From Candidatus Borrarchaeum yapensis (lineage in GTDB: Archaea > Asgardarchaeota > Sifarchaeia > Borrarchaeales > Borrarchaeaceae), in contig JAEOSF010000001.1 in assembly GCA_016840515.1 (NCBI GenBank), positions 50,447 to 82,446 of the forward strand: 32,000 nt of DNA, given 5' to 3'. Shown here in pieces: positions 8,265 through 24,802 of this stretch (positions are counted from its first letter, which is position 1; every line of letters begins with the position of its first letter). The notes under the pieces were generated by a model that saw only the letters and a program-made list of their open reading frames with translations, had not been told where the DNA came from and made no database searches. The position numbers and the translations under genes are program-made.

Positions 8265-9458
8265 TTATCCGCGGATGCGAACCACCTCAGGGTGCGCCAT
8301 CACCCAGTTATCCCTCTCCACCATGCGTGGACCTGGGAATATCGGATTTGAAAGATTAGCCACTCCATTGACATCAGCATTGAGAACTTTATTAGCTGTT
8401 TTGCATACATATAAACCACGGTGTTTTCGACCATTTCTATGTCTTTTACCGCAAAGACTACAGGTTTGAGAGGTCCAACTTTCGTCTATCGTTTTGACAA
8501 TCATCCCAAAATTCTCGGCTGTTATGTTTAACCGATCGACAATATAGCGAAAACTCCAGAAGTTATGGATCATTGCGTTGGTTTTTTTCCCCTTATCATT
8601 ATCCACTCGGATATGGGTTAAATCACCTACCGATATTTCAGAAACACCCTTCTCATAACAGTCCTTGACGAATCGATAGATCATAGTGTTGATGCCCTGT
8701 CGAAATCTCCGTTTCCTTGTCCGATATAACTTGTTTAGTTTTTTTGTGGGCCTAGGTTTCCCTCCTAATTTCCTTTGATAGTTAGCTATTTGTTTGTTCC
8801 AATACCACCAGTCACTCAACAACGACTTCCCAGAATAGAGTTTCGCACGAGTATCACCTTCAGTATAAGTGGTGAGGACATTGATCACTCCCAGATCGAT
8901 GTACGCCTTCTTGTTTCCTAATGGTTGATGTAGAGGTGTGCACTCTACTGGTTGATAGGCATACCATCCTTTCGAGAGCATATCAAAGTGAATTTCAAGA
9001 CGTCCTTGTTTTCCATGCCAGTTTAAGTTTCCATGGTAGGTAATCGCTAATTTATTGGGCAACAAAAGCCGTCTGGCTTCAAATTTATAACAATCTGTAC
9101 GTATGAGTGACCTTAAAATTCGCTTGCCTGTTTTTCGATCTTTCCAGTAGCCAGGAGGTCTAATGACCTTGATATGAGGAGACAACTTCCCCTGCTTCTT
9201 TTTTCTTAAAAGTGCAAAAAAGGATTTCCAAGCCTCATTATTCTTGCGGATGATCTGTTGCGTTGTTGCAGAACCGATCTGAGGTGAAAAGTCCTGATAT
9301 TCTTCAGTGGTATCCCAGTCTAGAGTTCCATCGAAGAAGGATTGTCGCCGCTTAAAGGTTATTTTATTCCATAAGACAGAAGATAACGTGCATAAGGCAA
9401 ATAGTTTTGCCTCTTGATCCTCATCAGGAACTAATTTAAGGATATTAGTTCTTCTCAA
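8265..9458 (-). CDS. tnpB: TnpB / IS605 OrfB-family RNA-guided endonuclease
   Basis: 397 aa. N-terminal 'ILKLVPDEDQ...', RuvC-I 'AYIDLGVINVLT', C-terminal 'WTSQTCSLCGKR...' Zn-ribbon and RuvC-III 'NADVNGVANL'. The second Cys pair of the ribbon looks degenerate ('YVCKTANK'). Confidence 0.9.
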   Translation of the reverse strand: MRRTNILKLVPDEDQEAKLFALCTLSSVLWNKITFKRRQSFFDGTLDWDTTEEYQDFSPQIGSATTQQIIRKNNEAWKSFFALLRKKKQGKLSPHIKVIRPPGYWKDRKTGKRILRSLIRTDCYKFEARRLLLPNKLAITYHGNLNWHGKQGRLEIHFDMLSKGWYAYQPVECTPLHQPLGNKKAYIDLGVINVLTTYTEGDTRAKLYSGKSLLSDWWYWNKQIANYQRKLGGKPRPTKKLNKLYRTRKRRFRQGINTMIYRFVKDCYEKGVSEISVGDLTHIRVDNDKGKKTNAMIHNFWSFRYIVDRLNITAENFGMIVKTIDESWTSQTCSLCGKRHRNGRKHRGLYVCKTANKVLNADVNGVANLSNPIFPGPRMVERDNWVMAHPEVVRIRG

Positions 9459-11300: not shown

Positions 11301-12545
11301 TTATTGTACCGCTTCTGCAAGAATTTCTGCAAACTTATAGACTTCTTCAAAAGTATTATATAGGGGATATGGCGCAACACGGATTATATCAGGCTCCCTC
11401 CAATCAACGGTTACCCCCCGATCTATCAACGTATCAAATAATTTCTTACCGTTTTTGAGAGTTCGAATTGAGAGTTGGCATCCTCGCTCATTAGCTTTTG
11501 AAGAGGTAATTATCTCGTAATTTTCAGGGCCTAATTCTTTTATCAAATACTCTAAATAGCCAGTCAATAACTCCCTTTTCTGATGAAAAAGAGATAGATC
11601 AAGCTCATCCCAAATGTTTAAAGCAGCTTTCAGACTTGCTAATAAAAGCACAGGATGTGTACTTATTTGCCAACCCGAAGCCCCAAGCGCTGGGTTAATG
11701 TCTGGCTCCATTAGGAACATCGTTTCACGTTTACCACCCCACCAGCCATCAAATCGAGGGAGATCTTTTTCAAAGTGGCGTTCATGTACGAAACATGCAC
11801 TTATTCCGCCAGGACCTGCATTGATGTACTTATAATTGCACCAAACGGCAAAATCTACATTCCAATCATGTAATTCAAGAGGGATATTTCCTACTGCATG
11901 TGCCAGATCGAAACCAACAACTGCCCCTTTTGCATGGGCTGCTTTAGTGATGGCTTCCATATCAAACGCTTGACCTGTAAGATAGTTAACTCCAGAAAAA
12001 AGGACTAAGGCGATAGATTCATTTATTGCATCAATAATGTCTTCTGTCCTGAGAATTGCTTCTCCGGGCCTAGCCTTAACTTCTATCAAAGAATCATTAA
12101 TTTCATGACCATGAAAACGGATTTGGGATTTAAGAGCATATTCATCACTAGGAAAAGTATGTTCTTCAATCAATATTCGATGTCTGTTTGTTGTTGTAGG
12201 ACAGAAAAAACTCACTAGAAGAAGATGAAGATTGACAGTCAAACTGTTCATGATTGAAACTTCTTCAGGCTGGGCACCTATAATACGTGCCATACTTTTA
12301 ACTAAATCATCTGAGTAAGAAAACCAGTTTTTAGACCCATGAAACCATCCTTCAACGCCTATCTCCTCCCATGTCTTAAGGATTTTGTCTATTTCAGTTC
12401 TTGCTGTTTTTGGTTGAAGACCTAATGAGTTGCCACAAAAATAGATTATGGAGTTGGGATAGTGGAACATTGTTCGAAATTTAGCTAATGGATCCGCCAA
12501 GTCCAGTTCTTTTGCAAACTCTAAACTTCGCTCAAATTCGATCAT
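11301..12545 (-). CDS. kynU: kynureninase (PLP-dependent)
   Basis: 414 aa. 'IYFCGNSLGLQPK', 'FDLAHAVGNIPLELHDWNVDFAVWCNYKYINAGPGG' (PLP-Lys in YKY), 'DWREPDIIRVAPYPLYNTFEEV'. These are collinear with bacterial and eukaryotic kynureninases. Confidence 0.9.
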   Translation of the reverse strand: MIEFERSLEFAKELDLADPLAKFRTMFHYPNSIIYFCGNSLGLQPKTARTEIDKILKTWEEIGVEGWFHGSKNWFSYSDDLVKSMARIIGAQPEEVSIMNSLTVNLHLLLVSFFCPTTTNRHRILIEEHTFPSDEYALKSQIRFHGHEINDSLIEVKARPGEAILRTEDIIDAINESIALVLFSGVNYLTGQAFDMEAITKAAHAKGAVVGFDLAHAVGNIPLELHDWNVDFAVWCNYKYINAGPGGISACFVHERHFEKDLPRFDGWWGGKRETMFLMEPDINPALGASGWQISTHPVLLLASLKAALNIWDELDLSLFHQKRELLTGYLEYLIKELGPENYEIITSSKANERGCQLSIRTLKNGKKLFDTLIDRGVTVDWREPDIIRVAPYPLYNTFEEVYKFAEILAEAVQ

Positions 12546-12589: not shown

Positions 12590-13477
12590 TTATTCATTTT
12601 TTAAAAGAAATCGAGGGAATTTCATCGCACTCTTAACTCTGTTTTCAAATATGCCAAGTTCTCTGACTCCAAAGCCCATTGAAAGCCCCAAAAGTTGCGG
12701 TAGATGAAGAACGGGGATGTCATAGTCGAGTTCCCAGAGTTCTTTAACCTTGATCTGATTTAAATCGAGGCTAAGAGAGCAGAACGGGCAGATAGTTATG
12801 AGCGCCTTAAGGGCTGCATCATGCGCAGTAGATATTATACGATGTGTCAGACGCCAAGCGACATCTGGGGCATTACTTAAGACGGGGGCTCCACAGCAGG
12901 ATATTTTTCCTTCATAATCTGATGCAATTGCTCCAGTAAGATTAATGATTTCATCCATATGCAGTGGTCGTTCAGGGTCTCCGTGATGTGTAATTTCAGA
13001 GGGGCGAAGCATGTGACAACCATAGTATGCTCCAACCTTAAGTCCGTCTTTAAATGGTATTTTAAGATGTTCCTTTATTCGTGGCAGTCCAACATCCTCA
13101 TAAAGAATTTTGAGAAAATGTTTAACTTCAAGTGTGCCATTATATTCTAGGTCAAAGTCTGATAGAATATTGTTAATATCTTCCCTTGCAGCATTATCTT
13201 TCTTTAAGTATTCATTTGCATGCATGATCGAACCTACGCAGCCGTTACATAAACAGCAAATATCTAAGTCCATTTTTTCAGCTGTAGCTAAAATTCTTGC
13301 CGACAACAATGTCCAATATTGTTCGTCCATTGAACGAACAATGGGTGAACCACAACATCCCGAATTAGGGAGATCAATCAGTTCTACACCTAGTTCCTTT
13401 GCAACTACACGGGAAGAGGCTTCATACCCGTTCATTTTTTCGGGAATAGTACAGCCTAGAAAAAGCGCATACTTCAC
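12590..13477 (-). CDS. hdrB: heterodisulfide reductase subunit B (two CCG domains)
   Basis: 295 aa. 'YALFLGCTIP', 'SGCCG', 'CCLCNGC', 'YYGCH', 'ISCCGAP', 'ICPFC'. The GTG start overlaps the hdrC stop by 1 nt. Confidence 0.9.
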   Translation of the reverse strand: MKYALFLGCTIPEKMNGYEASSRVVAKELGVELIDLPNSGCCGSPIVRSMDEQYWTLLSARILATAEKMDLDICCLCNGCVGSIMHANEYLKKDNAAREDINNILSDFDLEYNGTLEVKHFLKILYEDVGLPRIKEHLKIPFKDGLKVGAYYGCHMLRPSEITHHGDPERPLHMDEIINLTGAIASDYEGKISCCGAPVLSNAPDVAWRLTHRIISTAHDAALKALITICPFCSLSLDLNQIKVKELWELDYDIPVLHLPQLLGLSMGFGVRELGIFENRVKSAMKFPRFLLKNE

Positions 13478-14019
13478 TATTTTTCACCAGTTTCTTCTTC
13501 AGGGGGTTTATAATGGACTAATTTGGTGAATTTAATCTTTTCTGCTAGTTTTCGCATTATATCTGCGTCAGGAGTAGGCAATTCAGGGAGTTTGAAGCGA
13601 GTTTGACGTATTTTATTTTCATATTCACCCACTTCATTCATTAAGCCAAAAGTTAAGATGTTAGCCGCGATATCTGACCATACGCTAGGTATAATGTTTT
13701 CTTTCGCTGCCATGTTTCTAAGGTGAACGAAAATTTCTGGAGGTTTTACATCTTGAGGACAACGCTCCTCACATACATAACAGCCTGTACATAACCAAAT
13801 GAGCGGGTTGTGCAGTACTGCTTCTCTATCACCTAACATGATAAGCCGAATGATATTTCTCGGACTGAATTCTTCGCCACCGAACCGTGCTACAGGACAG
13901 CTACCCGTGCATGTCCCGCACTGGTAACAGGCAAAAAGGTCAAATGAAAGGTCCTCGATAAATTCCTCTGCGAGGCTCAAGTCTAGATCTGAAAGCTTCA
14001 CTACTTTTTCAGTTTCCAA
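13477..14019 (-). CDS. hdrC: heterodisulfide reductase subunit C (2x[4Fe-4S])
   Basis: 180 aa. 'CYQCGTCTGSCP' and 'CTGCYVCEERCP'. Confidence 0.9.
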   Translation of the reverse strand: METEKVVKLSDLDLSLAEEFIEDLSFDLFACYQCGTCTGSCPVARFGGEEFSPRNIIRLIMLGDREAVLHNPLIWLCTGCYVCEERCPQDVKPPEIFVHLRNMAAKENIIPSVWSDIAANILTFGLMNEVGEYENKIRQTRFKLPELPTPDADIMRKLAEKIKFTKLVHYKPPEEETGEK

Positions 14020-14022
14020 GTT

Positions 14023-14472
14023 CTATTCCTTCTTCGCTTCCTCTACTTCTTTCTTTACACGCTCAATTTCGGCCAGTTGCCATTGGACAAATTCGTTGGT
14101 GTCACCTTTCATAAGTTTTGAAAGGTCTGCCTCCAAATTAGATGGGCTAATCTTGACCATCCAACCTTCGCCGTATGGATCAGTATTGACAAGTGAGGCA
14201 TTATCCCACAACCCTTCATTGAATGCAGTAACTTCACCTGCGACTGGGGCATAAATTTTGCCTGTCCACTTGCCGCTTTCTAGTGTTCCAAAAGGTTTCA
14301 TAAACTCTACCGTCTCACCTTCAAAAGGCAATTGCACAGCCTGAATTTTTTCAGCCATGGTTTGCGCAAAATCGGTCACGCCAACCACAACAATATCTCC
14401 TTCTACTCTTGCCCAAGAATGTTCAGTTGTATAATATAATTCATCTGGGAGATCATAATCTTCAATTTTCAT
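14023..14472 (-). CDS. gcvH: glycine-cleavage H-protein-like lipoyl carrier
   Basis: 149 aa. 'YTTEHSWARVEGD...VGVTDFAQ' and 'LESGKWTGKIYAPVAGEV' (the lipoyl-Lys position is conserved). SD 'aaggag' lies upstream. Confidence 0.88.
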   Translation of the reverse strand: MKIEDYDLPDELYYTTEHSWARVEGDIVVVGVTDFAQTMAEKIQAVQLPFEGETVEFMKPFGTLESGKWTGKIYAPVAGEVTAFNEGLWDNASLVNTDPYGEGWMVKISPSNLEADLSKLMKGDTNEFVQWQLAEIERVKKEVEEAKKE

Positions 14473-14532
14473 TTTTACATTCTCCTTTTCAATTTATGAA
14501 ATTGTTTTTTTTCAAAGGTTATATATAAGAAG

Positions 14533-14549
14533 CATCCCTGCGTAGGGAG
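14533..14549 (-). other. second small hairpin in the hdrA-gcvH spacer (minus RNA: CUCCCU-ACGC-AGGGAUG)
   Basis: 5-bp G/C-rich stem (UCCCU/AGGGA) with a 4-nt loop, directly 3' of the SECIS candidate. Function unknown. Confidence 0.3.
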
Positions 14550-14558
14550 CCAGTCCTT

Positions 14559-14587
14559 CTCTCAGTCCCTAAAGGGTTTCCCGAGAG
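14559..14587 (-). promoter_or_regulatory. candidate archaeal-type SECIS element in the hdrA-mvhD 3' region
   Basis: Minus-strand RNA is 5'-CUCUCGG-GAAA-CCC-UUUA-GGG-A-CUGAGAG-3'. It has a 7-bp lower helix, an asymmetric internal loop with GAA(A) on the 5' side and A on the 3' side, three G-C pairs and a 4-nt loop. It starts 4 nt after the final stop of the Sec gene. Confidence 0.7.
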
Positions 14588-14590
14588 AGA

Positions 14591-17500
14591 TCATTCCATT
14601 TCAGTTCGAGATATACGCGACGGATTGGGTCCAAGTTTCGAAATACTTTCGCCAAAGGTTTGCATTGCTTCTCTAAATTTTTCTGCTTCCGCGGATGAAA
14701 GGAAGTACATTACAGTTCTGCCTTCACCAAAACCCATAGTTTCAAGAAGTTTTTCAGCCAACTCAACAGACTTTTCTGCTTGTAAGTTTCCATCAATATA
14801 TGCACAGTCGCCTTTGTGTCATCCGACTACGGCGACACCGTCTGCGCCGAGTGAAAACGCATTAAGCAACCATGGAGTATCAATACGACCTGTACACGGC
14901 ACCCGTATAATTCGAGTTCGATAGTCATATTGAAGTTTTGAAAGCCCAGCTAAGTCTGCAGCACCATACCCACATTTTTCACAAGCAAAAACAAGAAGTA
15001 ATGATTTTTGCTTGCTTTCAGCTAAAAGTGATTCAATTTGTGGATAGAATTGCTCATCTCGCCAGTATCGAAGTTCTCTAGCTCCAGAGGGACATGCTGC
15101 AACGCATGTGCCGCAGCCCTTGCATTCAATTTCATCAGTAACCGAAACAAGTCCTCCTGCTTCAGTTTCTTTCGTAGTTATAGCATCGTATGGACAGGCG
15201 ATTACGCACACCTTACATCCGCTACAAAGATTCTCGTCACATACAGCCTTGATTAGTTCAAGTTGAATCTCTTTTTGTTGTAACAGTACGCCTGCTGCTG
15301 ATGCCGCTGCTTTACCTAGTACTATTGAGTCGCTTATGCTTCGTGGAGAAAGAACAGACCCTGCTACGTAAACGCCATCTTTTCGTGTTTCGACAGGTTT
15401 GAATTTTATGTGGATAGGCTCAAGAAAACCATCAGAAGAGCGAGTAACTCCTGTTATCTTACACAGTTCATCAAAGCCTTCAGGAGGTTCTTGCCCTACC
15501 GCTAGGACTACATAATCTGTGTCTATCTCGAATGTAGTTCGTGAAAGGGTATCGTATACTTGCACCATAGCATTTTCATTGTAGATTGCCGTAACCATCG
15601 GGGGTCTTTCTTCTGTCCATCGCATAAAATTGGAGCGATATTGTTTTCTTGTAGTTAGATAGAACTCTTCCATATACCTTCCGACAGGTCGCAAATCCTC
15701 CTTAAAGAGGACAAAGGTTTGACAGTTCGGAAAGAGTTCTTTCACGGTCTGCGCATTTTTCAGTGAGGCACCGCAACAAACACGAGAGCAGTATTTGTTT
15801 CCATCTTCTTCTCGTGAGCCAACGCACTGAATGAAGACAACACGTTTTGGTTCTTGATCAAAACTGCGCGTTTTAAGCAATTCCTCGAATTCAAGAGAAG
15901 TTACCACTCGTGGAACAGTATTGTAACCGTATTCGCCGTCCTTGGGAGAATATGTATTTGTTCCGACAGCTATAATTATAGCGCCAACGTTAATATCAGT
16001 GTTTTCTCCATTAATTCTCCTAATTTGTGTTGTAAAATCACCGATGTGACCATCAAGGGATTCCAATGAAGACTCAAGGTAAACCGAGATATTGGGAGCA
16101 TTAGATATCTGCGCTGTTAATTCATCCAAAATTTGGCTGGCTTCAGTTTTTTCTGGAAACACTTTGTAGAGAGAATTGAGACGACCACCAAGTTGAGAAT
16201 CTTTTTCCACGAGGTGAACATTGAATCCTTGATTAGATAAATCAAGGGCAGCCGACATTCCAGCAATTCCACCACCAATAATAAGAGCTTCATTGACAAC
16301 TGAAACCGTCCGATATGGCACAATCTCAAGATGTAATGCTCGTGCAATGCCAGCCCTGATCAAGTCCTTTACTTTTTCTGTGGCTTCTTTTTTTGTCTGC
16401 ATATGAACTTGCGCTGCCTGATCTCTTATGTTCACGTATTCAAGATAATACTTACTTACTCCAGCAGACTCTAAAAGAGTCCTAAATGTTTCTTCGTGAA
16501 GTAAAGGTGAACATGCTGCTACTAAAACCCGATTAATATTGAGTTCCTTTATCATCTCGCTGATTTGCTGTTGTCCTGGCTCACTACAGAAGAACTCATT
16601 GTTATCTACATAGATCACGCCAGGTAATGTCTTTGTATATTCCATGACTTCTGGTACGTCAATGTAATTTGCGATATTGCCACCGCAGTGGCATACAAAC
16701 ACGCCAAGTCGAGACTCATCGGTAACTTCTTCCTTTGTTTGAGGCGCATATGATGTTATGTGTGGTGGAGAACCAGATAAAAGGTTCACTGCAGACGATG
16801 CAGCAGCTCTTGCTTGAGTAACCGTATCCACAGCATCTTTTGAGCCTGTTGCCACTCCCGCGATAAAGATTCCATGTCGATTTGTTTCGATTGGATGATA
16901 ACTGTTGGTTTCAAGAGGAAATCCATCACCGCTAATTTTAATGCTTAATTTTTGGCATAGTTCATGTGTCCCTTCAGATGGAACAAATGAACTAGATAAG
17001 ACAACAAGGTCGATATTTTTGACCTGAGAAACTTCTCCAGTATTAGTATCTTCAACCCAGACAATCAAGTCTTTTGTTTCTTCGTTTTCTTGAATTTCCG
17101 CCACTTTACCGCGAATTAAATTAGGATTATAGCTATTCTGTGTGTCCCTGTAGTATTCTTCGTAAAGTTTTCCTGAGGATCTTATATCTATATAGCAAAT
17201 GTCTGCCTGTCCTTTTCCTTTTGATTGCAGTTTATAGGCTCTAGCTTGTTTTAATGCGAACATACAGCAGACTCGGTTACAGAATTTGTTGCCGACTTCC
17301 TTTTCACTTCTAGAGCCCACACATTGGACCCATAATACCCTGCTTGGTTCTTTCCCATCAGAAGGTCTCACTATCTTGCCATTAGTAGGACCTGTGGGAT
17401 GCATCATTCGTTCAAACTGAAGTGATGTAACAACGTTTTCGTAGTATCCATAGCCAAATTGTTTCAATGGTGTTGGGTCGAATTCATCAAAACCCGTGGC

Positions 17501-18076
17501 TACAATTATCGAGCCAACATTGATTTCGATGATCTCTTCGGCATCAACAAAGTTTATTGCTTCCGCAGGACACTCCATCTCACACATTCCACAATCTATG
17601 CACTGCTCCTTATCTAATCTAGGGATCTGGGGGACTGCCTGAGGAAAAGGAAGATAAATTGCTTTTCGTACACCTATACCCATATCGTATTCTGAAGTCA
17701 CTTCAACTGGACATACTTCAAGGCATTTTTGACATCCTGTACATTTGTCTGAATCGACATATCTAGGGCTTTGCTTGAGTTTTACCGTAAAGCTTCCTGA
17801 TTCACCATTTACCTCTAAAACTTCGGTTAGAGTAAACAAGCGAACATTGTCGTTTCTGGCAACGCTTGACATAAGTGGTGTAAGTGGTCAAGCCGAGCAC
17901 TCATCGGTCGGAAAGATTTTGTAAACCTGTGAAAATCGTCCTCCAATTGTTTCTCGTTTCTCTACTAGAAACGCCGTATAGCCTTGATTTGCAATATCTA
18001 GCGAAGCATACATGCCAGCCATTCCGCCGCCAATCACCAAGACACTTTCTGCCGCTTTACTTTCCAATGCATTCAT
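14591..18076 (-). CDS. hdrA: heterodisulfide reductase subunit A (tandem HdrA modules) fused to an MvhD domain. Selenoprotein with two in-frame UGA (Sec) codons at 17888-17890 and 14819-14821
   Basis: Three collinear in-frame pieces: 18076-17891 'VLVIGGGMAGM...FPTDECSA', TGA, 'PLTPL' plus the 1017-aa ORF, TGA, then 75 more codons 'HKGDCAYIDGN...FLSSAEAEKFREAMQTFGESISKLGPNPSRISRTEME' to TGA 14591-14593. Both TGAs replace Cys of conserved motifs (FPTxDCSxC and GCHxGDCxY). AGGAGGT SD precedes ATG 18076. There are several ferredoxin-type CxxCxxCxxxCP motifs and two GxGxxG FAD motifs. Confidence 0.85.
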
Positions 18077-18260
18077 TTAACGAACCTCCTACTTAGTGAA
18101 CACCTCCAAACTACCATAACTTAATGTTCGGTTGCTTTTATTCAATTCTTCTTTGATAATGTCAGCGTAATGCACTTCAAAATTATAAAAAAAGGTGGGG
18201 GCAACTGATGAGCACATATATCCCTATACACTTGTAATACTTGGTTAGATATTTGTCACA

Positions 18261-19448
18261 TTAGCGATAACTGTCAACTACACCTGCTGAATAGGCAACA
18301 AGTCTTGGCAATTCTAAAACGCGAATGCGTTCTCTGTAAGCCCTCATTCCAATTGAATGATGACACGTAGGGCAAGTCGTGAGAATATATTGTACACCTA
18401 ACTTAGCTGCGTCTTTGACAATTTCATCACTTAGATCGTTTCTTAGTTCAGTGTATGGTACACGGATCGGTCCACCGCAACATCTCGCGTCTCCTTTTGT
18501 TTCTGGTAACTCAACGAACTCAATACCTGGAATACTTTCTATGATCTTCCGAGGAGGGTCGTATTTAAGTGCGTATCTCCCGAGATGGCATGGATCCTTG
18601 AAGGTAACCTTTCCCTCAAGGGGTTTCGTCATTTTTATTTTACCATCATCGATTAAACGTTCAAGCACTTCCGAAATATGATATGCTTTTGGAGTATCCG
18701 GAGAGATTGCTTTATACTCCTCATTGAAGACTGAAGCGCACATCGGACATGCTGTGATTATAGTCTCAATCCCTCGCGATTTAAAGAGTTCGATGTTTTT
18801 CTTAGCAGCTTTCTCAAAATATGGTTTGAATCCTAACCAACTAAGAAATCCTCCGCAACAACTCTCTGAATCGAACATCGTAAACTCTTCTCCAGCGGCT
18901 TTCAAGAGTTTAACTCCCGCACGTGAATTATCGGGATAATCAATAGTCCCTACACAACCAGCGTAATAGAGCGTTGAAGATTCCTTTGGTAAGGTTGCTT
19001 TTATTTCGCCAAAAACCTCGTTGAACACGACAGGATAATCCATTCCATGGGTATTTCCTTTCTCAAGAATGCTGTCAGCAATACCCCTATGCTCTGAAAG
19101 CGTATAATTGTTGTCGGCTAGATATTCACGCACGCGATCCATAACGTCTACCACTTTTATTTTTGCTGGACAGTGTTCCTCACACTTTTTGCACAATGTG
19201 CATGTGTAAAGAATTTCCATTGCATAATCATCAACGGGAAATCCTCCTTCAATGAGAGCTCGCTCTAGCATGATCCTTCCTCGACAGTTGTAACTTTCCA
19301 TCTGTGTAGCATCAAAAATCGGACATGCAAACCTACAAAATCCGCATCGTACGCATCTGTATGTTTCTGTTTCAGCATCAGCGTCAATCCTCATTTTCTT
19401 ATGTTTTGGTTTAAGCATTGTACCCGAAACTACATCTTCTTGTGTCAT
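18261..19448 (-). CDS. glcF: GlcF/HdrD-like Fe-S oxidoreductase (2x[4Fe-4S] plus two CCG domains)
   Basis: 395 aa. 'CVRCGFCRFACP', 'CTLCKKCEEHCP', 'YYAGC', 'SCCGG', 'ACPMC', 'DPCH', 'ARCCGG', 'TCPTC'. The start is 2 nt after the upstream gene's stop. Confidence 0.85.
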   Translation of the reverse strand: MTQEDVVSGTMLKPKHKKMRIDADAETETYRCVRCGFCRFACPIFDATQMESYNCRGRIMLERALIEGGFPVDDYAMEILYTCTLCKKCEEHCPAKIKVVDVMDRVREYLADNNYTLSEHRGIADSILEKGNTHGMDYPVVFNEVFGEIKATLPKESSTLYYAGCVGTIDYPDNSRAGVKLLKAAGEEFTMFDSESCCGGFLSWLGFKPYFEKAAKKNIELFKSRGIETIITACPMCASVFNEEYKAISPDTPKAYHISEVLERLIDDGKIKMTKPLEGKVTFKDPCHLGRYALKYDPPRKIIESIPGIEFVELPETKGDARCCGGPIRVPYTELRNDLSDEIVKDAAKLGVQYILTTCPTCHHSIGMRAYRERIRVLELPRLVAYSAGVVDSYR

Positions 19449-19450
19449 CT

Positions 19451-20869
19451 CTAGTCATCCTCCAAGATGTTAATTCTTTGGCCTGGAATTGGTAATACGT
19501 GACCAGGGCAGAAAATATTTTTAGGATCAAATGCATTCTTGATCTTTTTCTTTAATTCTAACACTTTAGGTTGGTGTTCAACGGGCATCATCATAAGTTT
19601 GGAAACACCAATTCCATGTTCCCCAGTGACCGTCCCTTCTAATTCAACTGCTGCATGCCACAAGTCAACTAATGTTTGTAGGGCGCGCCTATGTTCATCA
19701 GGATCTCGTTCATCCCACAAAAGTATAGGATGAAGATTTCCATCTCCTGCGTGACCGAATGTGGCAATTTCGATCCCATTCTTTTCGCTTACTCTATCAA
19801 TCTCTTGGAACATCGTCGGTAGGTTTTTTAGAGGTACTGATACGTCTTCCATTCGTGCAGTTGGCCGTCGAAGTGTTAGTGCTGGAAATGCAGCCTTTCT
19901 AGCTGCCCAGACTTGTGTACATGTTTCCAGATCTCGTGCTGTTTCGGATTTGATTGCTCCCATCTCTTTGAACAAATCTTCCAGTTTATCTAGCCGCATC
20001 TCAACGTCATCTCTATTCCCATCTAATTCCACAAGGACAACAGCTCCGCATTCGGGGAATTTTAAGGTTCCTGAATATTCTTCTACTGCCTTAAGTGTCT
20101 TGTAATCAAGAATTTCTGTTCCTGAGGGGTCAAATCCTCTTTTAATGATTTCTCTGACGCACTTTCCTGCTTCAAAAGCGGAATTGAAATAGCCACTAGC
20201 CACGAGACGGACTGCTGGCAAAGGTTGAATTTTGAGCATTGCCTTGGTAATAATACCCAGAGTCCCTTCTGATCCTACAAAAAGTGAAACAAGATCGTAG
20301 CCACAAACAAATTTAATTGCTTTATTGCCGATATTAACGACACTCCCATCTGATAGGACGATTTCCAAGCCCATAACCCACTCTTCGGTGACTCCATATT
20401 TAAGTGCACGAATTCCGCCGCTATTATTATTTACCATACCGCCAATTGTAGCTGTTTTGTCCGATGCTGGATCCGGCGGAAAGTAAAATCCATAGGGCTC
20501 TAAGTAGGTATTGAGGTCTAGACACACCATACCAGGCTCAACGGTTATTAGAAAGTTCTCAACATCGAGATCTACAACCTTGTTCATCCTTGCGACCACC
20601 AAAATCAAACAATCAGGCTTTGCAGGGATGACACCCCCGCTAACGTTGCTTCCAGCCCCTCTTGGAATAATTGAGAATCCTTCTTCATTAGCTAGCTTCA
20701 CGATATCTGCGACCTCTTCTGTGGTATTAGCAAAGGCCACGGCTGCTGGCATACCTGTATCAATGCTAGCATCGCGTGAGTAAATATACAGATCGATTGC
20801 ATGATTTAAAACATTGTTTTCTCCAACTATTTTTTTCAGGGCGGGAATGATTGTGCCCTGCCAATCCAA
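19451..20869 (-). CDS. glcD: FAD-linked 2-hydroxyacid oxidase/dehydrogenase (GlcD / D-lactate dehydrogenase family)
   Basis: 472 aa. FAD_binding_4-type N-terminal half ('IIPRGAGSNVSGG', 'TVEPGMV...L') and C-terminal 'FGHAGDGNLHP', 'GTVTGEHGIG', 'DPKNIFCPG'. Confidence 0.88.
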   Translation of the reverse strand: MDWQGTIIPALKKIVGENNVLNHAIDLYIYSRDASIDTGMPAAVAFANTTEEVADIVKLANEEGFSIIPRGAGSNVSGGVIPAKPDCLILVVARMNKVVDLDVENFLITVEPGMVCLDLNTYLEPYGFYFPPDPASDKTATIGGMVNNNSGGIRALKYGVTEEWVMGLEIVLSDGSVVNIGNKAIKFVCGYDLVSLFVGSEGTLGIITKAMLKIQPLPAVRLVASGYFNSAFEAGKCVREIIKRGFDPSGTEILDYKTLKAVEEYSGTLKFPECGAVVLVELDGNRDDVEMRLDKLEDLFKEMGAIKSETARDLETCTQVWAARKAAFPALTLRRPTARMEDVSVPLKNLPTMFQEIDRVSEKNGIEIATFGHAGDGNLHPILLWDERDPDEHRRALQTLVDLWHAAVELEGTVTGEHGIGVSKLMMMPVEHQPKVLELKKKIKNAFDPKNIFCPGHVLPIPGQRINILEDD

Positions 20870-21118: not shown

Positions 21119-22108
21119 TTGAGTGGAAAACCTAAAGTTTTTGTTTCTCGTATAATCCCAAAGCCAGCTTTAGATATGATCAATGTGGAGTGTAAGATGG
21201 AATTTAATGAAAGTGATATCCCTCTTACACAGGCTGAGTTTATTGAAAAAATGAAAACACTTGACGGGCTTGTTTGCCTACTTACTGACGACATTAATGC
21301 CGAAATCCTAAAATCCGTTAAAGAAGCAAACCCTAATTTTAAAGTAGTCAGCAATGTAGCAGTAGGTTACAACAACATCGACTGGAAGGCAGCCACAGAA
21401 TTAGGTATCGCAGTATCCAATACCCCAGGAGTTCTAGATGACACAACTGCAGATTTTACCTGGGCACTTCTCATGGCAGTTGCTCGACGCGTTGTCGAGG
21501 CAGATAAGTATTTCCGCCAAAAAACGTGGAAAGGATGGGGTATAATGCAGTTTCTTGGTTCTGATGTCTACGGGAAAACACTGGGAGTCGTTGGACTAGG
21601 AAGAATTGGACGAGTGGTAGCTAAAAGGGCTAAGAGTTTTGACATGAAAGTTCTTTATACAGATGTTGTCCGGTTCGAGGATCTGGAAAAAGAATTAGGA
21701 CTCCAATATGTGGATAAAGAGACAATTCTTAAAGAATCAGACTATGTAACTTTGCATGTTCCCTTGATTCCAGAAACTAAACACTATATTGGTGTAAAAG
21801 AACTAGAAATGATGAAAGAAACCGCGTATTTGATTAATGCATCACGAGGTCCCGTTGTAGATGAAAAAGCGCTCGTTAAAGCATTACAGGAGAAAAAGAT
21901 TGCTGGTGCTGGTTTGGATGTCTTTGAAATGGAGCCTAAAGCTGAACCAGAACTTTATGAAATGGATAACGTTGTGTTAGCACCACATATCGCAAGTGCA
22001 TCAATAGAGACTCGTACTAAAATGGCGACCATGGCTGCTGAAAATGTCATTGCTGGCGTTAAGGGACTCAAACCACCAAATTGTGTTAATCCAGAAATTT
22101 ATGGATAA
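21119..22108 (+). CDS. gyaR: glyoxylate/hydroxypyruvate reductase (D-isomer-specific 2-hydroxyacid dehydrogenase)
   Basis: 329 aa. 'KPKVFVSRIIP' N-terminus as in archaeal GyaR, 'GKTLGVVGLGRIGRVVAKRA' NAD motif, 'LINASRGPVVDEKAL', 'AGAGLDVFEMEP', 'PHIASAS'. TTG start. Confidence 0.85.
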   Translation: MSGKPKVFVSRIIPKPALDMINVECKMEFNESDIPLTQAEFIEKMKTLDGLVCLLTDDINAEILKSVKEANPNFKVVSNVAVGYNNIDWKAATELGIAVSNTPGVLDDTTADFTWALLMAVARRVVEADKYFRQKTWKGWGIMQFLGSDVYGKTLGVVGLGRIGRVVAKRAKSFDMKVLYTDVVRFEDLEKELGLQYVDKETILKESDYVTLHVPLIPETKHYIGVKELEMMKETAYLINASRGPVVDEKALVKALQEKKIAGAGLDVFEMEPKAEPELYEMDNVVLAPHIASASIETRTKMATMAAENVIAGVKGLKPPNCVNPEIYG

Positions 22109-22144: not shown

Positions 22145-23857
22145 ATGCCTAAAATGCAAGTAGCGGAAGTTATAGTAAAAATTCTTGAAGATGAAGGAGT
22201 AACAGCAATGTTTGGTATACCGGGCGCAGCAATAAATCCCGTCTACAAATACCTTGGGCAAACAACAAAAATTAAGCACTATATTGCTCGACATGAAGAA
22301 GGAGCATGCCATGCAGCTGACGGATATGCACGAGCAACTGGAAAAGTTGGCGTCTGTATCTGTACAAGCGGACCTGCAGCGACAAATTTTGTAACAGGTC
22401 TCTATACTGCTCAAGTTGACTCTATCCCAATTGTCGCAATTACTGGGACAGCAACGAGAGCAGTATTGGGTCAAGAGGCGTTTCAAGCGGTTGACATAGC
22501 AGAAATAGTTAAACCAGTGACTAAGAAAAGTTATTGTGTTAGGGAGCCTTATCGCCTCCCAGGTACTATGAGGGAAGCTTTTCGAATCGCTAGAGAAGGA
22601 AGACCCGGACCAGTGCTTATTGATCTCCCCGTTGACCTCCAGAGAACAGAAATTGAATATGATCCAGAAACAGATCGTAGTTTAGACTTTTCGACACCCA
22701 AAGCAAATGAAAAACAAATCAAGAAAGCAATTGATATGATCTTGGAAGCTAAGAATCCAATCATCTTAGCCGGAGGAGGAGTCATTATTTCGGGCGCTTC
22801 CAAAGAACTCCAAGAATTAGCAGAATATTTAAGTTTACCCATCTGTGCTAGTTACATGGGAAAGAGTGCTCTTGACACTAATCATCCATTATACGCGGGA
22901 CTAGTCGGTACCATCATGCAAACAAGACTTGGCAACAAATTATTCTTAGAGAGCGATCTTGTTCTAGCGGTTGGTGCCAGATTTGTTGACCGTCATACGG
23001 GTAAACTAGATGTTTACACGAAAGACAGAAAATTCATCCACATTGACATTGATCCTCTACAAATTGGCAAGATCGTCCCCACAGAGTTAGGAATTGTATC
23101 AGATGCCAAAGTAGCACTACAAATGATGATCGATCAAGCCAAAGCTCGAAATGCAAAAGTAATGCCAAATGAATGGGTATCGTCTATACCTGCCCGACGT
23201 AAAGAGCTTGCGAGAAGATTAGACTTTGATAATGTGCCAATCAAACCTCAAAGACTTTTCAAAGAAATAAATGAATTCTTTGATGATGACACAATTTTTG
23301 TGACGTCAGTCGGACTTAATCAGATTTGGAGCGGTCAATATCAAGAAATAAAGAAACCAGGACATTACAAGGTCTGTGGATGCGCGGGAACGTTGGGTTG
23401 GGATTTACCAGCTTCGATTGGGGCTAAAGTCGGATACGAGGAAATGGGAATGCCTGAAAAGAAGGTCGTAGGCATCACAGGAGATGGCGGATTAGGATTC
23501 ATGGTAGAAGAATTAGCGATGGCGGCCCACTATCAAACTCCAATAGTTATGCTGGTGCTTAACAATGGCTTCTTGAGCTTGATTAGACAAAACCAGAGCA
23601 TCGTTTATGACTATGAATATGCGGTAGATCTTACATACGATACAAATAAGCTTGAAAAACATGGAATAGGAATAGATTTCGTTAAGCTTGCAGAAGCTTT
23701 TGGACTATACGCTGAACGAGTCGAAAAACCTGAAGATCTAAAGGCTGCTTTCCAGAGAGGCCTAGATAACGCCCCAGCGGTATTAGATATTATATGTGAA
23801 CGTGAAACTAATTGTAGTATGGGGTTAGCTCTGGACGCTATAGCTGAAAGAGGATAA
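22145..23857 (+). CDS. gcl: glyoxylate carboligase (tartronate-semialdehyde synthase), ThDP enzyme
   Basis: 570 aa. The N-terminus 'MPKMQVAEVIVKILEDEGVTAMFGIPGAAINPVY' matches the Gcl-specific 'GVPGAAINPFY' rather than the acetolactate synthase form. Also 'GRPGPVLIDLPVD' and the ThDP motif 'GDGGLGFM...LNNG'. SD 'taggagag' lies upstream. Confidence 0.8.
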   Translation: MPKMQVAEVIVKILEDEGVTAMFGIPGAAINPVYKYLGQTTKIKHYIARHEEGACHAADGYARATGKVGVCICTSGPAATNFVTGLYTAQVDSIPIVAITGTATRAVLGQEAFQAVDIAEIVKPVTKKSYCVREPYRLPGTMREAFRIAREGRPGPVLIDLPVDLQRTEIEYDPETDRSLDFSTPKANEKQIKKAIDMILEAKNPIILAGGGVIISGASKELQELAEYLSLPICASYMGKSALDTNHPLYAGLVGTIMQTRLGNKLFLESDLVLAVGARFVDRHTGKLDVYTKDRKFIHIDIDPLQIGKIVPTELGIVSDAKVALQMMIDQAKARNAKVMPNEWVSSIPARRKELARRLDFDNVPIKPQRLFKEINEFFDDDTIFVTSVGLNQIWSGQYQEIKKPGHYKVCGCAGTLGWDLPASIGAKVGYEEMGMPEKKVVGITGDGGLGFMVEELAMAAHYQTPIVMLVLNNGFLSLIRQNQSIVYDYEYAVDLTYDTNKLEKHGIGIDFVKLAEAFGLYAERVEKPEDLKAAFQRGLDNAPAVLDIICERETNCSMGLALDAIAERG

Positions 23858-23887: not shown

Positions 23888-24802
23888 ATGAAGAAACACT
23901 GGGATCTTTATATGAAAATCGGTATAGTACATGGAATGGTGTTTCCAGAATGCCTTGCGGGAGAAGGTCCAATACTCGAAACGCTTACTAAGATAGCAGA
24001 AGATGGATTCTTCTCAGCAATTGACTATGGTGGATGCAAAGATCCAGCAATCAAAGGTGATGTAGCAGCACTCTTAAAAGCATCTCGCTTAACCGTCAAC
24101 TTCTCAGCACAACCAGCTCTATTGCTCCCGAAACTTAATTTGAACGCATTAGACGAAGAATTACGAAATCGATCTATACAGGCAATAAAATCATGTATTG
24201 ACGAAGCCTACGAAGTTGGTGCAGAATATTTAACCGTTCTAAGTGGTCCTTATCCAGGTGATGCAGATAGTGAAAAGGGAATGACATTGTTAATCGATTC
24301 CTTAAATCAACTTTGTGAATACGCGAAAAGTAAAGGAAATCTCGCATTAGCTTTAGAGGTCTTTGACCGTGAGATTGATAAAAAATCTTTGATAGGGCCA
24401 TCTGAATCAGCAGTAGAGGTTGCTAAGGCAGTACGTGAGGCAGGATATCCTACTTTTGGCTTAATGCATGATTTAAGTCATCTTCCATTGCTAAATGAAA
24501 CACCTGCCCATGCGTTGTCGACTACGAAGAAGTATTTAACACTTGTGCACTTGGGGAATTGCGTCAAAGACCCAAACAATCCTTTATATGGAGATCAACA
24601 TCCGATCTTCGGTATAGAAGGAGGAGAAAATGACGCAAAAGAGTTGGCAGAATACCTGAATGCTCTTTTTGAAATTGATTACTTAGAAAAAGGTAAACGC
24701 CCATTTGTTAGTTTCGAAGTAAAACCTCATAAAGGTATTACATCAGAGATGGCCATAGCAAATGTAAAACGTACATTAAAAGAGGCTTGGACACAAGTTT
24801 AA
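23888..24802 (+). CDS. xylose-isomerase-like TIM-barrel protein (hydroxypyruvate isomerase-like / sugar-phosphate isomerase-epimerase)
   Basis: 304 aa. It occupies the position taken by hyi after gcl in bacteria. 'LALEVFDRE' and 'GLMHDLSH...LVHLGN' resemble metal-ligand strands of the AP_endonuc_2 fold. The specific activity cannot be assigned. Confidence 0.6.
   Translation: MKKHWDLYMKIGIVHGMVFPECLAGEGPILETLTKIAEDGFFSAIDYGGCKDPAIKGDVAALLKASRLTVNFSAQPALLLPKLNLNALDEELRNRSIQAIKSCIDEAYEVGAEYLTVLSGPYPGDADSEKGMTLLIDSLNQLCEYAKSKGNLALALEVFDREIDKKSLIGPSESAVEVAKAVREAGYPTFGLMHDLSHLPLLNETPAHALSTTKKYLTLVHLGNCVKDPNNPLYGDQHPIFGIEGGENDAKELAEYLNALFEIDYLEKGKRPFVSFEVKPHKGITSEMAIANVKRTLKEAWTQV

Follow-up and report, generated by a model that had tools for sequence, protein, structure and literature searches.

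A lipoyl carrier of a distinct GcvH-like clade, encoded among heterodisulfide reductase genes of Candidatus Borrarchaeum yapensis: a candidate thiol/disulfide partner of CCG-domain reductases

Organization of the cluster

We focus here on a cluster of six genes in the genome of the Asgard archaeon Candidatus Borrarchaeum yapensis (assembly GCA_016840515.1, contig JAEOSF010000001.1). The sequence examined, referred to below as the window, is a 32-kb stretch of this contig (positions 50,447 to 82,446 of the forward strand), and all coordinates are counted from its first letter. The cluster lies on the minus strand from 20869 to 12590 and encodes a GlcD-type 2-hydroxyacid dehydrogenase with an iron-sulfur subunit resembling HdrD, the heterodisulfide reductase (Hdr) proteins HdrA, fused to MvhD, HdrC and HdrB, and, between HdrA and HdrC, a small GcvH-like protein that is predicted to be lipoylated. 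This carrier belongs to a clade of its own, whose genes are found in at least five phyla, most of them next to those of CCG-domain proteins (HdrB or HdrD-like) rather than next to gcvP or gcvT, and we suggest that its lipoyl arm may be the thiol/disulfide substrate of these CCG enzymes. The genes and sequence elements of the cluster are listed here in the order of transcription.

19451..20869, minus strand: glcD, dehydrogenase for D-2-hydroxyacids (glycolate/D-lactate type), dependent on flavin adenine dinucleotide (FAD); 472 amino acids (aa), TTG start
18261..19448, minus strand: glcF, HdrD-like iron-sulfur subunit; 395 aa, two 4Fe-4S motifs and two complete CCG domains
18182..18189, minus strand: putative TATA-like box TTTATAAT, read from the sequence, in the spacer between glcF and hdrA
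18090-18084, minus strand: AGGAGGT upstream of hdrA, read from the sequence
14591..18076, minus strand: hdrA-hdrA-mvhD fusion, HdrA2-type; 1161 codons
17888..17890, minus strand: in-frame TGA, hdrA codon 63, selenocysteine (Sec) in HdrA, context CSA-U-PLTP
14819..14821, minus strand: in-frame TGA, hdrA codon 1086, Sec in the MvhD domain, context VVG-U-HKGDC
14530..14594, minus strand: candidate selenocysteine insertion sequence (SECIS) stem-loops in the 3' untranslated region of hdrA, with an AUGA start and the apex GGGAAACCC
14520..14527, minus strand: putative promoter-like box TATATATA; lies some 50 nt before gcvH and is kept in four genomes
14023..14472, minus strand: gcvH, GcvH-like lipoyl carrier protein of the 'GKW' clade; 149 aa, Pfam GCV_H 126.4 bits
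13477..14019, minus strand: hdrC; 180 aa, 8 cysteines in two CX2CX2CX3C (4Fe-4S) motifs
12590..13477, minus strand: hdrB, methanogen-type; 295 aa, two complete CCG motifs

Within the cluster, glcD and glcF are separated by a gap of 2 nt and gcvH and hdrC by one of 3 nt, and there is an overlap of 1 nt between hdrC and hdrB. Longer spacers precede hdrA (184 nt from glcF) and gcvH (118 nt from the hdrA stop), and since gcvH is preceded by a conserved TATATATA box of its own, the 8 kb may form three transcription units. An earlier first-pass annotation, made from the sequence alone, had given this gene set with its position and shared orientation, the 2-nt gap and the 1-nt overlap, the separate TATA box and AGGAGGT of hdrA, the HdrD-like CCG domains of the dehydrogenase subunit and the retained lipoyl-lysine of the carrier, and in all of these it proved right. 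It had also listed hydrogenase, DsrE, TusA and other sulfur-transfer genes as absent, which agrees with our Pfam scans of the window's open reading frames (five of which have no Pfam match): neither hydrogenase nor DsrE, TusA or rhodanese was found in the 32 kb. Furthermore, no lipoate ligase or synthase, gcvT, gcvP or lpd was detectable there by Pfam scans and tblastn, an LplA query being likewise negative in tblastn.

The carrier forms a clade apart from the glycine-cleavage H-protein

The predicted lipoyl-lysine of the carrier is K68 (codon 14271-14269), with E65 at position -3 and G79 at position +11, Glu and Gly at these positions being reportedly the determinants of lipoylation according to the residue rule of Fujiwara et al. 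The lysine sits in the motif ESGKWTGK(IY), as compared with ESVKAASD in Escherichia coli and a canonical ES(V/T)K(A/T/S)xSD. A scan with the corresponding motif over one genome per species (185,579 species) found 209 loci, the best 80 of which were analysed; together with the window protein they make up the 81 clade members counted here, the motif of the clade being ESGKW(T/V)G(K/R). The lysine, Gly at +11, Trp at +1, Gly at +3 and Lys or Arg at +4 are present in 81 of 81, and the position at -3 holds Glu in 64 and Ser in 17.

In the E. coli H-protein, E12 and E14 hold the aminomethyl-lipoyl arm, which exits past S67, D68 and Y70 (PMC7733448). The window carrier has E, S, G, K and Y at these five positions, so that three are replaced, one with a reversal of charge, and across the clade a Glu at the E14 position occurs in 0/81 members, while G at position 67 and K/R at position 68 are found in all. 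In a neighbour-joining tree the GKW proteins form a single clade, set apart from canonical GcvH, in which the Borrarchaeales carriers stand beside those of Thermoplasmatota; the grouping with bona fide GcvH, named in the first-pass annotation as a finding that would speak against its reading, is thus not what the tree gives. Family models place the window protein close to the boundary, as it scores 132.9 bits with the PRK01202 subfamily model (cut-off 117) and 109.5 bits with the TIGR00527 equivalog (cut-off 115.85). There is no cysteine in the window carrier, and there are 0-3 in the clade members. Judged from motif, cavity residues and tree, the carrier is a member of a distinct clade and not an ordinary glycine-cleavage H-protein, the name under which public annotation carries the GKW genes.

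Carrier genes are linked to CCG proteins across phyla

The neighbours of the 80 loci were surveyed by tblastn, with window proteins as queries for Hdr and CCG proteins and E. coli proteins as queries for lipoate genes and those of glycine cleavage. The survey reached up to 8 kb into the flanks of each locus, many of which are shortened by contig ends, and 52 of the 80 loci are uncut. A CCG protein (HdrB or HdrD-like) is encoded within 3 kb of the GKW gcvH in 53/80 genomes, or in 38 of the 52 uncut loci, and the loci span at least five phyla. The glycine-cleavage genes, on the other hand, are nearly missing: gcvP occurs at none of the 80, gcvT at two, both more than 4 kb off, and lpd at one, so that the adjacent gcvP and gcvT genes that the first-pass annotation had considered are found neither in the window nor in the clade; lplA occurs at four, all in Thermoplasmatota. 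As a control we used 80 metagenome loci encoding GcvH with a canonical motif, obtained in a scan with the generic pattern DPYGEGWM, which returned almost only canonical GcvH; within 3 kb, one of these 80 has a CCG protein and 32 have gcvT or gcvP. Fisher tests of GKW against control loci give p = 1.4e-20 for CCG proteins and 9e-12 for gcvT/gcvP, values that overstate the evidence because the 80 loci are not independent, with many of them from related Syntrophaceae/Desulfobacterota.

A stronger argument for linkage than the p-values is that the arrangement varies among lineages. At least seven gene orders occur across Asgard archaea, Thermoplasmatota, several Desulfobacterota families, Bacillota and Chloroflexi, including the following (~ marks a fusion; MAG, metagenome-assembled genome).

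Borrarchaeales: glcD-glcF-hdrA~mvhD-gcvH-hdrC-hdrB
Desulfarculaceae: hdrA, X~mvhD, hdrC, hdrB, gcvH and a glcD~hdrD fusion
Syntrophaceae: gcvH-hdrC-hdrB-hdrA
Syntrophorhabdus and other Desulfobacterota: hdrABC divergent from gcvH-hdrD-like-membrane protein
Thermoplasmatota and one Chloroflexi MAG: gcvH-glcD-hdrD
Bacillota MAGs: mixed forms

The carrier is thus found with a soluble HdrCBA, with GlcD and an HdrD-like protein, or with an HdrD-like protein and a membrane protein resembling QmoC/HdrE. All six parts of the window cluster recur, in another order, in the Desulfarculaceae, to which the isolate Desulfocarbo indianensis belongs. Two of the other arrangements bring in further redox modules. 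First, the HdrA of the Syntrophaceae type (1482 aa, L027:9901-14349 on the plus strand, similar in 19 loci) contains an inserted GltD/NfnB-like module (Fer4_20 + Pyr_redox_2), which suggests that the gcvH-linked Hdr of these bacteria has NAD(P)H as its third partner. Second, in 18 Desulfobacterota loci (among L025-L073; for example L070:3603-4457, plus strand) gcvH and the HdrD-like gene are followed by one whose 284-aa product faintly matches QmoC, a membrane anchor of the cytochrome-b type, which would place a membrane module like HdrDE or DsrMK beside the carrier gene.

A further neighbour is an AMP-forming enzyme resembling long-chain-fatty-acid-CoA ligases, the gene of which adjoins the GKW gcvH in 41/80 loci (among L024-L094; for example L040:6218-7795, minus strand), in bacteria and Theionarchaea. 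It lies divergently about 200 bp upstream in 25 of these loci and downstream, after the HdrD-like and membrane genes, in 16; it is also present at loci without a CCG neighbour and is absent from the window. This enzyme could activate an acyl group for the carrier, or its position could be mere lineage synteny.

Three loci of the survey stand out individually. In a Thermoplasmata MAG (L012:7001-10389) the GKW gcvH is followed by genes for a lipoate-ligase catalytic domain, a second, longer GCV_H-domain protein and a radical-SAM protein, with TusA and a class-V aminotransferase nearby, a set that resembles the archaeal LplAB-LipS1/S2 lipoate assembly sets (PMC10332631). Among the control loci, L107 is atypical in having the motif ESAKWVGG, and L130, which has no recognisable motif, lies 2-3 kb from hdrB, hdrC and HdrD-like genes; there may be other non-canonical GcvH groups tied to Hdr.

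Conservation within Borrarchaeales and among Asgard archaea

The gene order of the cluster is kept in three other species-level Borrarchaeales genomes (L007/L017, L018 and L008/L019), the proteins being 69-95% identical, as well as in 11 metagenome contigs that encode an identical GcvH-like protein; a gene order not conserved in relatives, which the first-pass annotation had named as a finding that would speak against its reading, is thus not what is seen. The nearest named genomes are those of Candidatus Borrarchaeum weybense (L007) and other Borrarchaeota/Promethearchaeota MAGs. The individual genes have diverged discordantly. In L008/L019 glcD and glcF are 92-95% identical to those of the window, hdrA is 69.5% and gcvH 77% identical, whereas in L007/L017 hdrA is 91% identical and glcF only 75%. 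Such a pattern points to recombination among Borrarchaeales lineages, or to an exchange of modules between them. Since the modules were exchanged without a change in their order, the order itself is probably under selection.

Outside the family, the clusters of the nearest HdrB homologues (Lokiarchaeota L102 and Helarchaeota L103) contain no gcvH, and the contexts of the nearest GlcF homologues (L014 and the Freyarchaeota/Jordarchaeales loci L015/L016) contain neither gcvH nor hdr, so that GlcF homology is no predictor of the cluster. We considered a general Asgard trait and rejected it on account of these Lokiarchaeota and Helarchaeota hdr clusters; nor is the cluster a feature specific to Asgard archaea, as D. 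indianensis has all six parts.

The heterodisulfide reductase proteins

The HdrA fusion has an unusual layout. Its truncated first copy consists of a FAD domain and an inserted ferredoxin domain, and its second copy of an N-terminal cluster domain, a divergent FAD domain and a C-terminal ferredoxin domain, followed by MvhD. When the protein is aligned to the solved HdrA 9sfi_A, residues 36-351 correspond to 170-483, 454-633 to 3-182 and 849-1022 to 482-654; these three best stretches cover canonical HdrA exactly once in permuted order, and the divergent second FAD domain (around residues 590-850) lies between them. We infer from this layout that the fusion is probably a covalent pseudo-dimer, the halves of which have undergone complementary domain losses. 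It scores 1144 bits with the NCBIfam HdrA2 model NF040770 (cut-off 1100), a score that is summed over three stretches. The MvhD part, residues 1026-1153, matches MvhD chains, and Pfam FlpD gives 147.9 bits (1028-1149).

The first-pass annotation had recognised selenocysteine and a double HdrA fused to MvhD, and both are indeed present, but the fusion has two in-frame TGA codons and not one. The codon-63 TGA aligns with residue X (Sec) of the Sec-containing HdrA 9sfi_A and has HdrA homology on both sides, and the MvhD/FlpD homology continues across the codon-1086 TGA; public gene calls break hdrA at the TGA codons into pieces of 62, 1017 and about 50 aa. FrhD/MvhD is a known Asgard selenoprotein, as is HdrA, the two being usually encoded by neighbouring genes with one common SECIS element (PMC11227280). 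The stem-loop region after hdrA, the AUGA start of which overlaps the hdrA stop codon, is a candidate for a SECIS serving both Sec codons. Its apex GGGAAACCC (GGGAAA) is similar to the apex G[U/G]AAA that has been described for hdrA/frhD of Borrarchaeales (PMC11227280), and the region is nearly invariant in four genomes, the HdrA products of which are only 69-90% identical. It folds with -28.4 kcal/mol (z = -1.7), there are no compensatory changes among the four genomes, the kink-turn register is not assignable by eye, and an Rfam scan of the whole window found no SECIS or other RNA at gathering thresholds.

HdrB has the ten cysteines of two CCG motifs (C9, C41, C42, C77, C80 and C154, C194, C195, C230, C233) and aligns with the solved HdrB 5odc_B at 237.9 bits over residues 1-280. 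With the NCBIfam model TIGR03288 it reaches 282.4 bits, below the equivalog cut-off of 345, and HdrC likewise remains below the cut-off of TIGR03290 (107.9 bits, cut-off 160), matching Pfam Fer4_8 and Fer4_17. All Hdr cofactor motifs are intact in the window proteins, which by sequence and motifs are of the methanogen/HdrA2 kind. A single HdrB lineage dedicated to GcvH was considered and rejected, as the window HdrB is nearer to ordinary archaeal HdrB than to the bacterial gcvH-linked HdrB. There is no mcr gene in the 32-kb window, and in papers on Asgard archaea the disulfide substrate of Hdr is described as unidentified (PMC11291895).

The dehydrogenase and the genes that flank the cluster

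GlcD matches Pfam FAD_binding_4 (137.6 bits) and FAD-oxidase_C (198.9 bits) and scores 435.7 bits with the NCBIfam model TIGR00387, below its equivalog cut-off of 567.9. GlcF matches Pfam CCG in two stretches (108.8 bits), with the motifs at residues 197 and 323, as well as Fer4_8; with 83.8 bits against a cut-off of 333 for PRK11274 it is not a GlcF equivalog, and its top NCBIfam matches are TfrB and LdhH, all below threshold. A second flavoprotein of the GlcE type was not found, as Pfam scans gave no other FAD_binding_4 gene in the cluster or the window. The following genes adjoin the cluster, the first four divergently from glcD and the last downstream of hdrB.

21119-22108, plus strand: glyoxylate/hydroxypyruvate reductase-like, 249 nt from glcD
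22145-23857, plus strand: glyoxylate-carboligase-like enzyme, dependent on thiamine diphosphate; full-length identity to E. coli Gcl 45%
23888-24802, plus strand: xylose-isomerase-like TIM barrel, not an orthologue of E. coli Hyi
25301-26392, plus strand: class-V aminotransferase
11301..12545, minus strand: kynureninase, 44 nt downstream of hdrB; NCBIfam TIGR01814 441.4 bits, cut-off 246.4

The reductase, carboligase-like and TIM-barrel genes are kept in L001, L002, L006 and L007. The carboligase-like enzyme has ARHEEGA where Gcl has ARHVEGA, with a catalytic Glu in place of Val51 of Gcl, and it also passes the acetolactate-synthase model TIGR00118, which together leave its reaction uncertain. 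We considered the flanking genes as an orthologous copy of the E. coli gcl-hyi-glxR genes and rejected this, since the carboligase keeps the catalytic Glu and the TIM barrel is not Hyi. For the same reasons, the assignment of glycolate is only moderate and the substrate call weak; the earlier choice of glycolate as the substrate goes back to these neighbour genes, whose identities fall below curated cut-offs, and we do not retain it as a firm assignment. A second gene for a D-isomer-specific 2-hydroxyacid dehydrogenase, besides that at 21119-22108, lies at 30888-31817 (minus strand, 309 aa). The kynureninase gene is found at the same site downstream of hdrB in L007/L017 and L008/L019; it has no evident tie to Hdr or hydroxyacid metabolism, and whether it is part of the system is uncertain.

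Relation to known systems

The closest precedent in principle is the sHdr-LbpA system of Hyphomicrobium denitrificans and Thioalkalivibrio (Cao et al. 2018, PMC6067878), in which Hdr-like CCG proteins are also coupled to a GcvH-homologous lipoate-binding protein outside glycine cleavage, with the lipoyl arm thought to interact with the Hdr active site. In its parts, on the other hand, the window differs. The sHdr genes are arranged as hdrC1-B1-A-hyp-C2-B2 with a small HdrA that has neither ferredoxin domains nor MvhD, whereas the window has one hdrC, one hdrB and an HdrA of 1161 aa with two ferredoxin domains and MvhD; it has no sulfur-transferase or dedicated ligase genes, and it couples the carrier to a 2-hydroxyacid dehydrogenase and a Sec-containing HdrA of the bifurcation type. 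It is thus without every defining feature of sHdr-LbpA that we looked at, and the contrast with sHdr systems drawn in the first-pass annotation holds.

The Hdr part itself resembles HdrA2B2C2 of Methanosarcina acetivorans (Yan et al. 2017, PMC5296606), in that HdrA~MvhD, HdrB and HdrC occur without a hydrogenase partner; for non-methanogen HdrA2 homologues these authors proposed another disulfide and NADH. The window system differs from HdrA2B2C2 in its tandem HdrA with complementary domain loss, its two Sec residues, the lipoyl protein proposed here in place of the heterodisulfide of coenzymes M and B (CoM-S-S-CoB) and the attached HdrD-like dehydrogenase. The MvhADG-HdrABC and Fdh-Hdr complexes (PDB 5ODC, 7BKB, 8RVU and 9SFI) provide the best matches for the window HdrA, HdrB, HdrC and MvhD; all cluster-binding cysteines are kept, and the Sec position of the window HdrA is that of the Sec-containing methanogen HdrA. 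Unlike the genes of these complexes, those of the window have no hydrogenase or formate dehydrogenase genes nearby, and a GcvH-like gene lies between hdrA and hdrC.

The dehydrogenase part has its counterpart in the GlcD/HdrD (Dld-HdrD) pairs of Methanomethylicia, Bathyarchaeia, Korarchaeia and Archaeoglobi, likewise a FAD-linked GlcD-type dehydrogenase with an HdrD-like CCG protein. They are proposed to couple lactate oxidation to heterodisulfide reduction, their disulfide partner in non-methanogens being acknowledged as unknown (PMC10667645). What the window and many other genomes add to such pairs is a dedicated lipoyl-carrier gene, a concrete candidate for that partner. The proposed carrier would resemble DsrC, the partner of DsrMK(JOP) in sulfate reducers (PMC10861901), as a small protein-borne dithiol/trisulfide that is the substrate of an HdrD-like CCG subunit; unlike in DsrC, the redox group would be a lipoyl group on a lysine and not two protein cysteines, and there is no link to sulfite reduction.

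An idea of this kind is not entirely new. In Culexarchaeia, a cluster of Ehe hydrogenase and HdrBC genes contains GcvH, which was speculated to present a disulfide to HdrB (PMC9723716). That cluster differs from the window in having a membrane-bound [NiFe] hydrogenase, SdhA and CdhA, and the paper contains neither a definition of the clade nor a cross-phylum survey. Apart from this, the literature searched, on GcvH together with Hdr in syntrophs, on LbpA beyond the sulfur oxidisers and on glycolate and Hdr in Asgard archaea, holds only the speculation on a lipoyl carrier, 'LarG', in Pelobacter carbinolicus, and in it we found no description of the GKW clade, of its cross-phylum linkage to CCG proteins or of the six-part cluster of Borrarchaeales and Desulfarculaceae.

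A proposed mechanism and its energetics

We propose that the cluster encodes a soluble HdrA2-type heterodisulfide reductase (the tandem HdrA~MvhD, HdrC and HdrB) capable of flavin-based electron bifurcation or confurcation, in which the lipoyl arm of the GKW-type carrier would take the place of CoM-S-S-CoB. The swinging lipoyl-lysine would carry electron pairs between two CCG-type sites with non-cubane 4Fe-4S clusters, one in HdrB and the other in GlcF, the HdrD-like subunit of the GlcD dehydrogenase, the carrier thus being common to GlcDF and HdrABC. A 2-oxoacid/2-hydroxyacid couple, to judge by the neighbour genes probably glyoxylate/glycolate, would form the high-potential end and ferredoxin (Fd) the low-potential end. 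A two-electron carrier X of intermediate potential would react at HdrA2/MvhD; this could be F420H2 or NAD(P)H, after the manner of HdrA2B2C2, or else a hydrogenase or formate dehydrogenase encoded elsewhere could take its place. The net reaction, which would be reversible, reads

glyoxylate + Fd(ox) + 2 XH2 <-> glycolate + Fd(red) + 2 X

and, as written, would be favourable with F420H2 and near equilibrium with NADH.

The proposal accounts for several observations. First of all, an arm that swings between two CCG sites would explain why the gene is found with HdrB, with an HdrD-like protein or with both, and why both kinds occur in the window. Second, it would explain the loss of the residues that protect the aminomethyl group. 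Third, a soluble hydride carrier and ferredoxin are direct reaction partners of HdrA2-type enzymes (PMC5296606), which fits both the window without hydrogenase genes and the NAD(P)H module of the Syntrophaceae.

As to energetics, the glyoxylate/glycolate couple has a potential of about -90 mV and pyruvate/lactate one of about -190 mV, NAD stands at -320 mV and ferredoxin at about -400 to -500 mV. Lipoamide is found at -290 mV (PMC6067878) and F420 at about -340 to -380 mV (PMC5296606). Since lipoamide and ferredoxin are both more negative than either hydroxyacid couple, the latter can only be the high-potential end and not the donor; glycolate or lactate as the donor of bifurcation, as first proposed for this cluster, is for this reason abandoned. 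The other half of that proposal, an Hdr complex acting on a protein-bound dithiol instead of CoM-S-S-CoB, is strongly supported by the comparison of loci (53/80 against 1/80, and never gcvP), but meets a difficulty in the energetics, taken up below.

Systems that connect a high-potential hydroxyacid couple with low-potential carriers do exist. One is the electron-confurcating lactate dehydrogenase Ldh-EtfAB, said to have been found in acetogens by Weghoff et al. in 2015. Together with the membrane-bound system of Syntrophobotulus glycolicus (PMC3156405), it is a functional analogue of the proposed scheme; the machineries are unrelated to it, the former being based on Etf and the latter on the membrane and the proton motive force, and neither has a thiol carrier. 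S. glycolicus couples glycolate/glyoxylate to H2 in both directions, with energy-linked electron transport (PMC3156405), and so provides a precedent.

Several points weigh against this interpretation. The promoter-like boxes before hdrA and gcvH, conserved as they are, permit separate transcription of the units, and neither a lipoate ligase nor a lipoate synthase is encoded in the window. In the survey, 14 of the 52 uncut GKW loci have no CCG neighbour, and the loci from kindred Syntrophaceae/Desulfobacterota do not count as independent events. The window HdrB is 43-48% identical to ordinary archaeal HdrB as against 36-42% to the bacterial gcvH-linked HdrB. Finally, free lipoamide is about 200 mV more negative than glyoxylate/glycolate. 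Oxidation of glycolate, the direction to which the flanking genes of the carboligase type point, would therefore demand a steeply uphill lipoyl step. Either the system runs reductively in the cell or it acts on another substrate, or else the carrier is no simple lipoyl redox shuttle.

With these points taken into account, a lipoyl-carrier-linked HdrA2-type system with GlcDF is in our judgement the best explanation as a whole, with a probability of roughly 0.5. Its parts differ in strength. From the neighbourhood survey, a functional link between the carrier and the CCG enzymes is highly probable. That the lipoyl disulfide is the substrate of these enzymes, which presupposes lipoylation of K68, seems to us somewhat more probable than the alternatives taken together. 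The specific glyoxylate/glycolate bifurcation scheme, with its choice of substrate, third partner and in vivo direction of flow, is considerably more doubtful and, in our judgement, less probable than not.

Alternative explanations

The likeliest of the alternatives, though improbable, is that the carrier is tied to the CCG enzymes in another way: it could bear a different thiol cofactor or a bound intermediate (acyl, sulfane sulfur or aminomethyl-like), or act as a factor in lipoyl relay or maturation. The invariant W, G and K/R beside the lysine differ from all canonical lipoyl domains, and Ser replaces the Glu at -3 in 17 of the 81 members; the Gly at +11, on the other hand, is invariant, and the other 64, including the window protein, retain the Glu. 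The fatty-acid-CoA-ligase-like enzyme found in half of the loci (41/80) could activate an unusual acyl group, yet the Borrarchaeales cluster is without such a ligase, and homologues of lipoate-protein ligase lie near the gene in four Thermoplasmatota loci. An unusual cargo would also avoid the problem that -290 mV poses for a lipoyl shuttle, and it has a parallel in LbpA of sHdr, which is believed to present its sulfur substrate in bound form (PMC6067878).

Distinctly less likely is the scheme of the first-pass annotation, in which GlcDF is an input module that docks on MvhD, as MvhAG and FdhAB do, and HdrA splits the electrons of glycolate or lactate between ferredoxin and, at HdrB, the lipoyl-GcvH. 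The position of glcDF directly upstream of hdrA-mvhD suits it, as does the lack of any other donor module encoded in the window, and MvhD is the docking point of the donor in the solved Mvh-Hdr and Fdh-Hdr complexes. With a donor more positive than both acceptors, to go by standard potentials, bifurcation cannot run in this way, however, and the reverse direction would waste reduced ferredoxin. Furthermore, many relatives (Thermoplasmatota, Chloroflexi) have GlcD and the HdrD-like protein with a GcvH-like gene and no HdrA/MvhD, which points to a direct relationship between HdrD and GcvH.

Very little probability remains for a chance assembly, in which an ordinary glycine-cleavage GcvH happens to lie between hdrA and hdrC and GlcDF is an independent dehydrogenase. 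The carrier does pass the PRK01202 model (132.9 against 117 bits), hdrA and gcvH have promoter-like boxes of their own, and a class-V aminotransferase and glyoxylate-related genes are nearby. This explanation is largely refuted by the lack of gcvT, gcvP and lpd in the window and their near absence from the 80 clade loci (gcvT beyond 4 kb in two, lpd in one), by the replacement of three of the five aminomethyl-cavity residues, one with charge reversal, by the contrast in CCG linkage with the canonical controls (53/80 against 1/80), and by the gap of only 3 nt between gcvH and hdrC together with the separation of the clade from canonical GcvH in the tree.

Least likely of all is an sHdr-type system for the oxidation of sulfur, or the processing of sulfur compounds, with an LbpA-like protein: Hdr-like genes with a lipoate-binding protein are the sHdr hallmark (PMC6067878), but DsrE, TusA and rhodanese genes are missing from the 32 kb, the window carrier is without cysteine where LbpA has two strictly conserved ones near its N- and C-termini (PMC6067878), there is one hdrCB pair and not two, HdrB is methanogen-type, HdrA is large, Sec-containing, MvhD-fused, equipped with ferredoxin domains and of the methanogen/HdrA2 type, and the hosts are strict anaerobes such as syntrophs.

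Other features of the window

A gene of the TnpB/IS605 OrfB type, with OrfB_IS605 and Cas12f1-like TNB domains, lies at 8265-9458 on the minus strand between a glycosyltransferase and a methyltransferase gene. It is found at the same place in L001/L002 and is absent in Ca. Borrarchaeum weybense (L007) and L008, where the flanking genes are adjacent, and it therefore looks like a recent insertion polymorphism. Genes for an Arf/Ras-family small GTPase (6607-7329, plus strand) and a JAB/MPN-domain protein (150-596, plus strand) are typical Asgard 'eukaryotic signature' genes; an antisense open reading frame at 6429-7157 that overlaps the GTPase gene is probably spurious. The window also encodes ribosomal protein L15e and RNase P subunits, which together with the Arf-like GTPase identify the host as an archaeon of Asgard type. 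Its G+C content is about 0.39, apart from a value of 0.49 at 5001-6000, inside an amino-acid permease gene (4460-6100, minus strand).

Implications

Of the energy genes of Asgard archaea, Bathyarchaeia, Korarchaeia and syntrophic bacteria, those for Hdr are among the most strongly expressed, and the substrate of Hdr outside methanogens has repeatedly been called an 'unidentified heterodisulfide' (PMC11291895, PMC10667645, PMC5296606). The GKW lipoyl-carrier clade, which no longer has the features that glycine cleavage requires and is encoded beside HdrB/HdrD-type genes in two thirds of the genomes that carry it, offers a concrete and testable candidate for this disulfide. Our broader proposal, which we hold tentatively and at slightly less than even odds, is that GKW lipoyl proteins are the thiol/disulfide currency of CCG reductases (HdrB, HdrD-like and HdrDE-like) in non-methanogenic anaerobes, and that in the window this currency would serve a soluble, selenium-dependent bifurcation linked to glyoxylate/glycolate. 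If this is true, the carriers would stand beside CoM-S-S-CoB and DsrC as their protein-bound counterpart and would plug Hdr bifurcation into organic-acid metabolism, and the lineages using them would include Borrarchaeales, Thermoplasmatota, syntrophic and sulfate-reducing Desulfobacterota and some Bacillota and Chloroflexi. Annotation of the GKW genes as glycine-cleavage GcvH distorts metabolic reconstructions. As D. indianensis is a cultured isolate with the same six parts, genetics and biochemistry are feasible. For the biology of Asgard archaea, the cluster suggests a soluble route from glycolate/glyoxylate, or from other 2-hydroxyacids, to ferredoxin.

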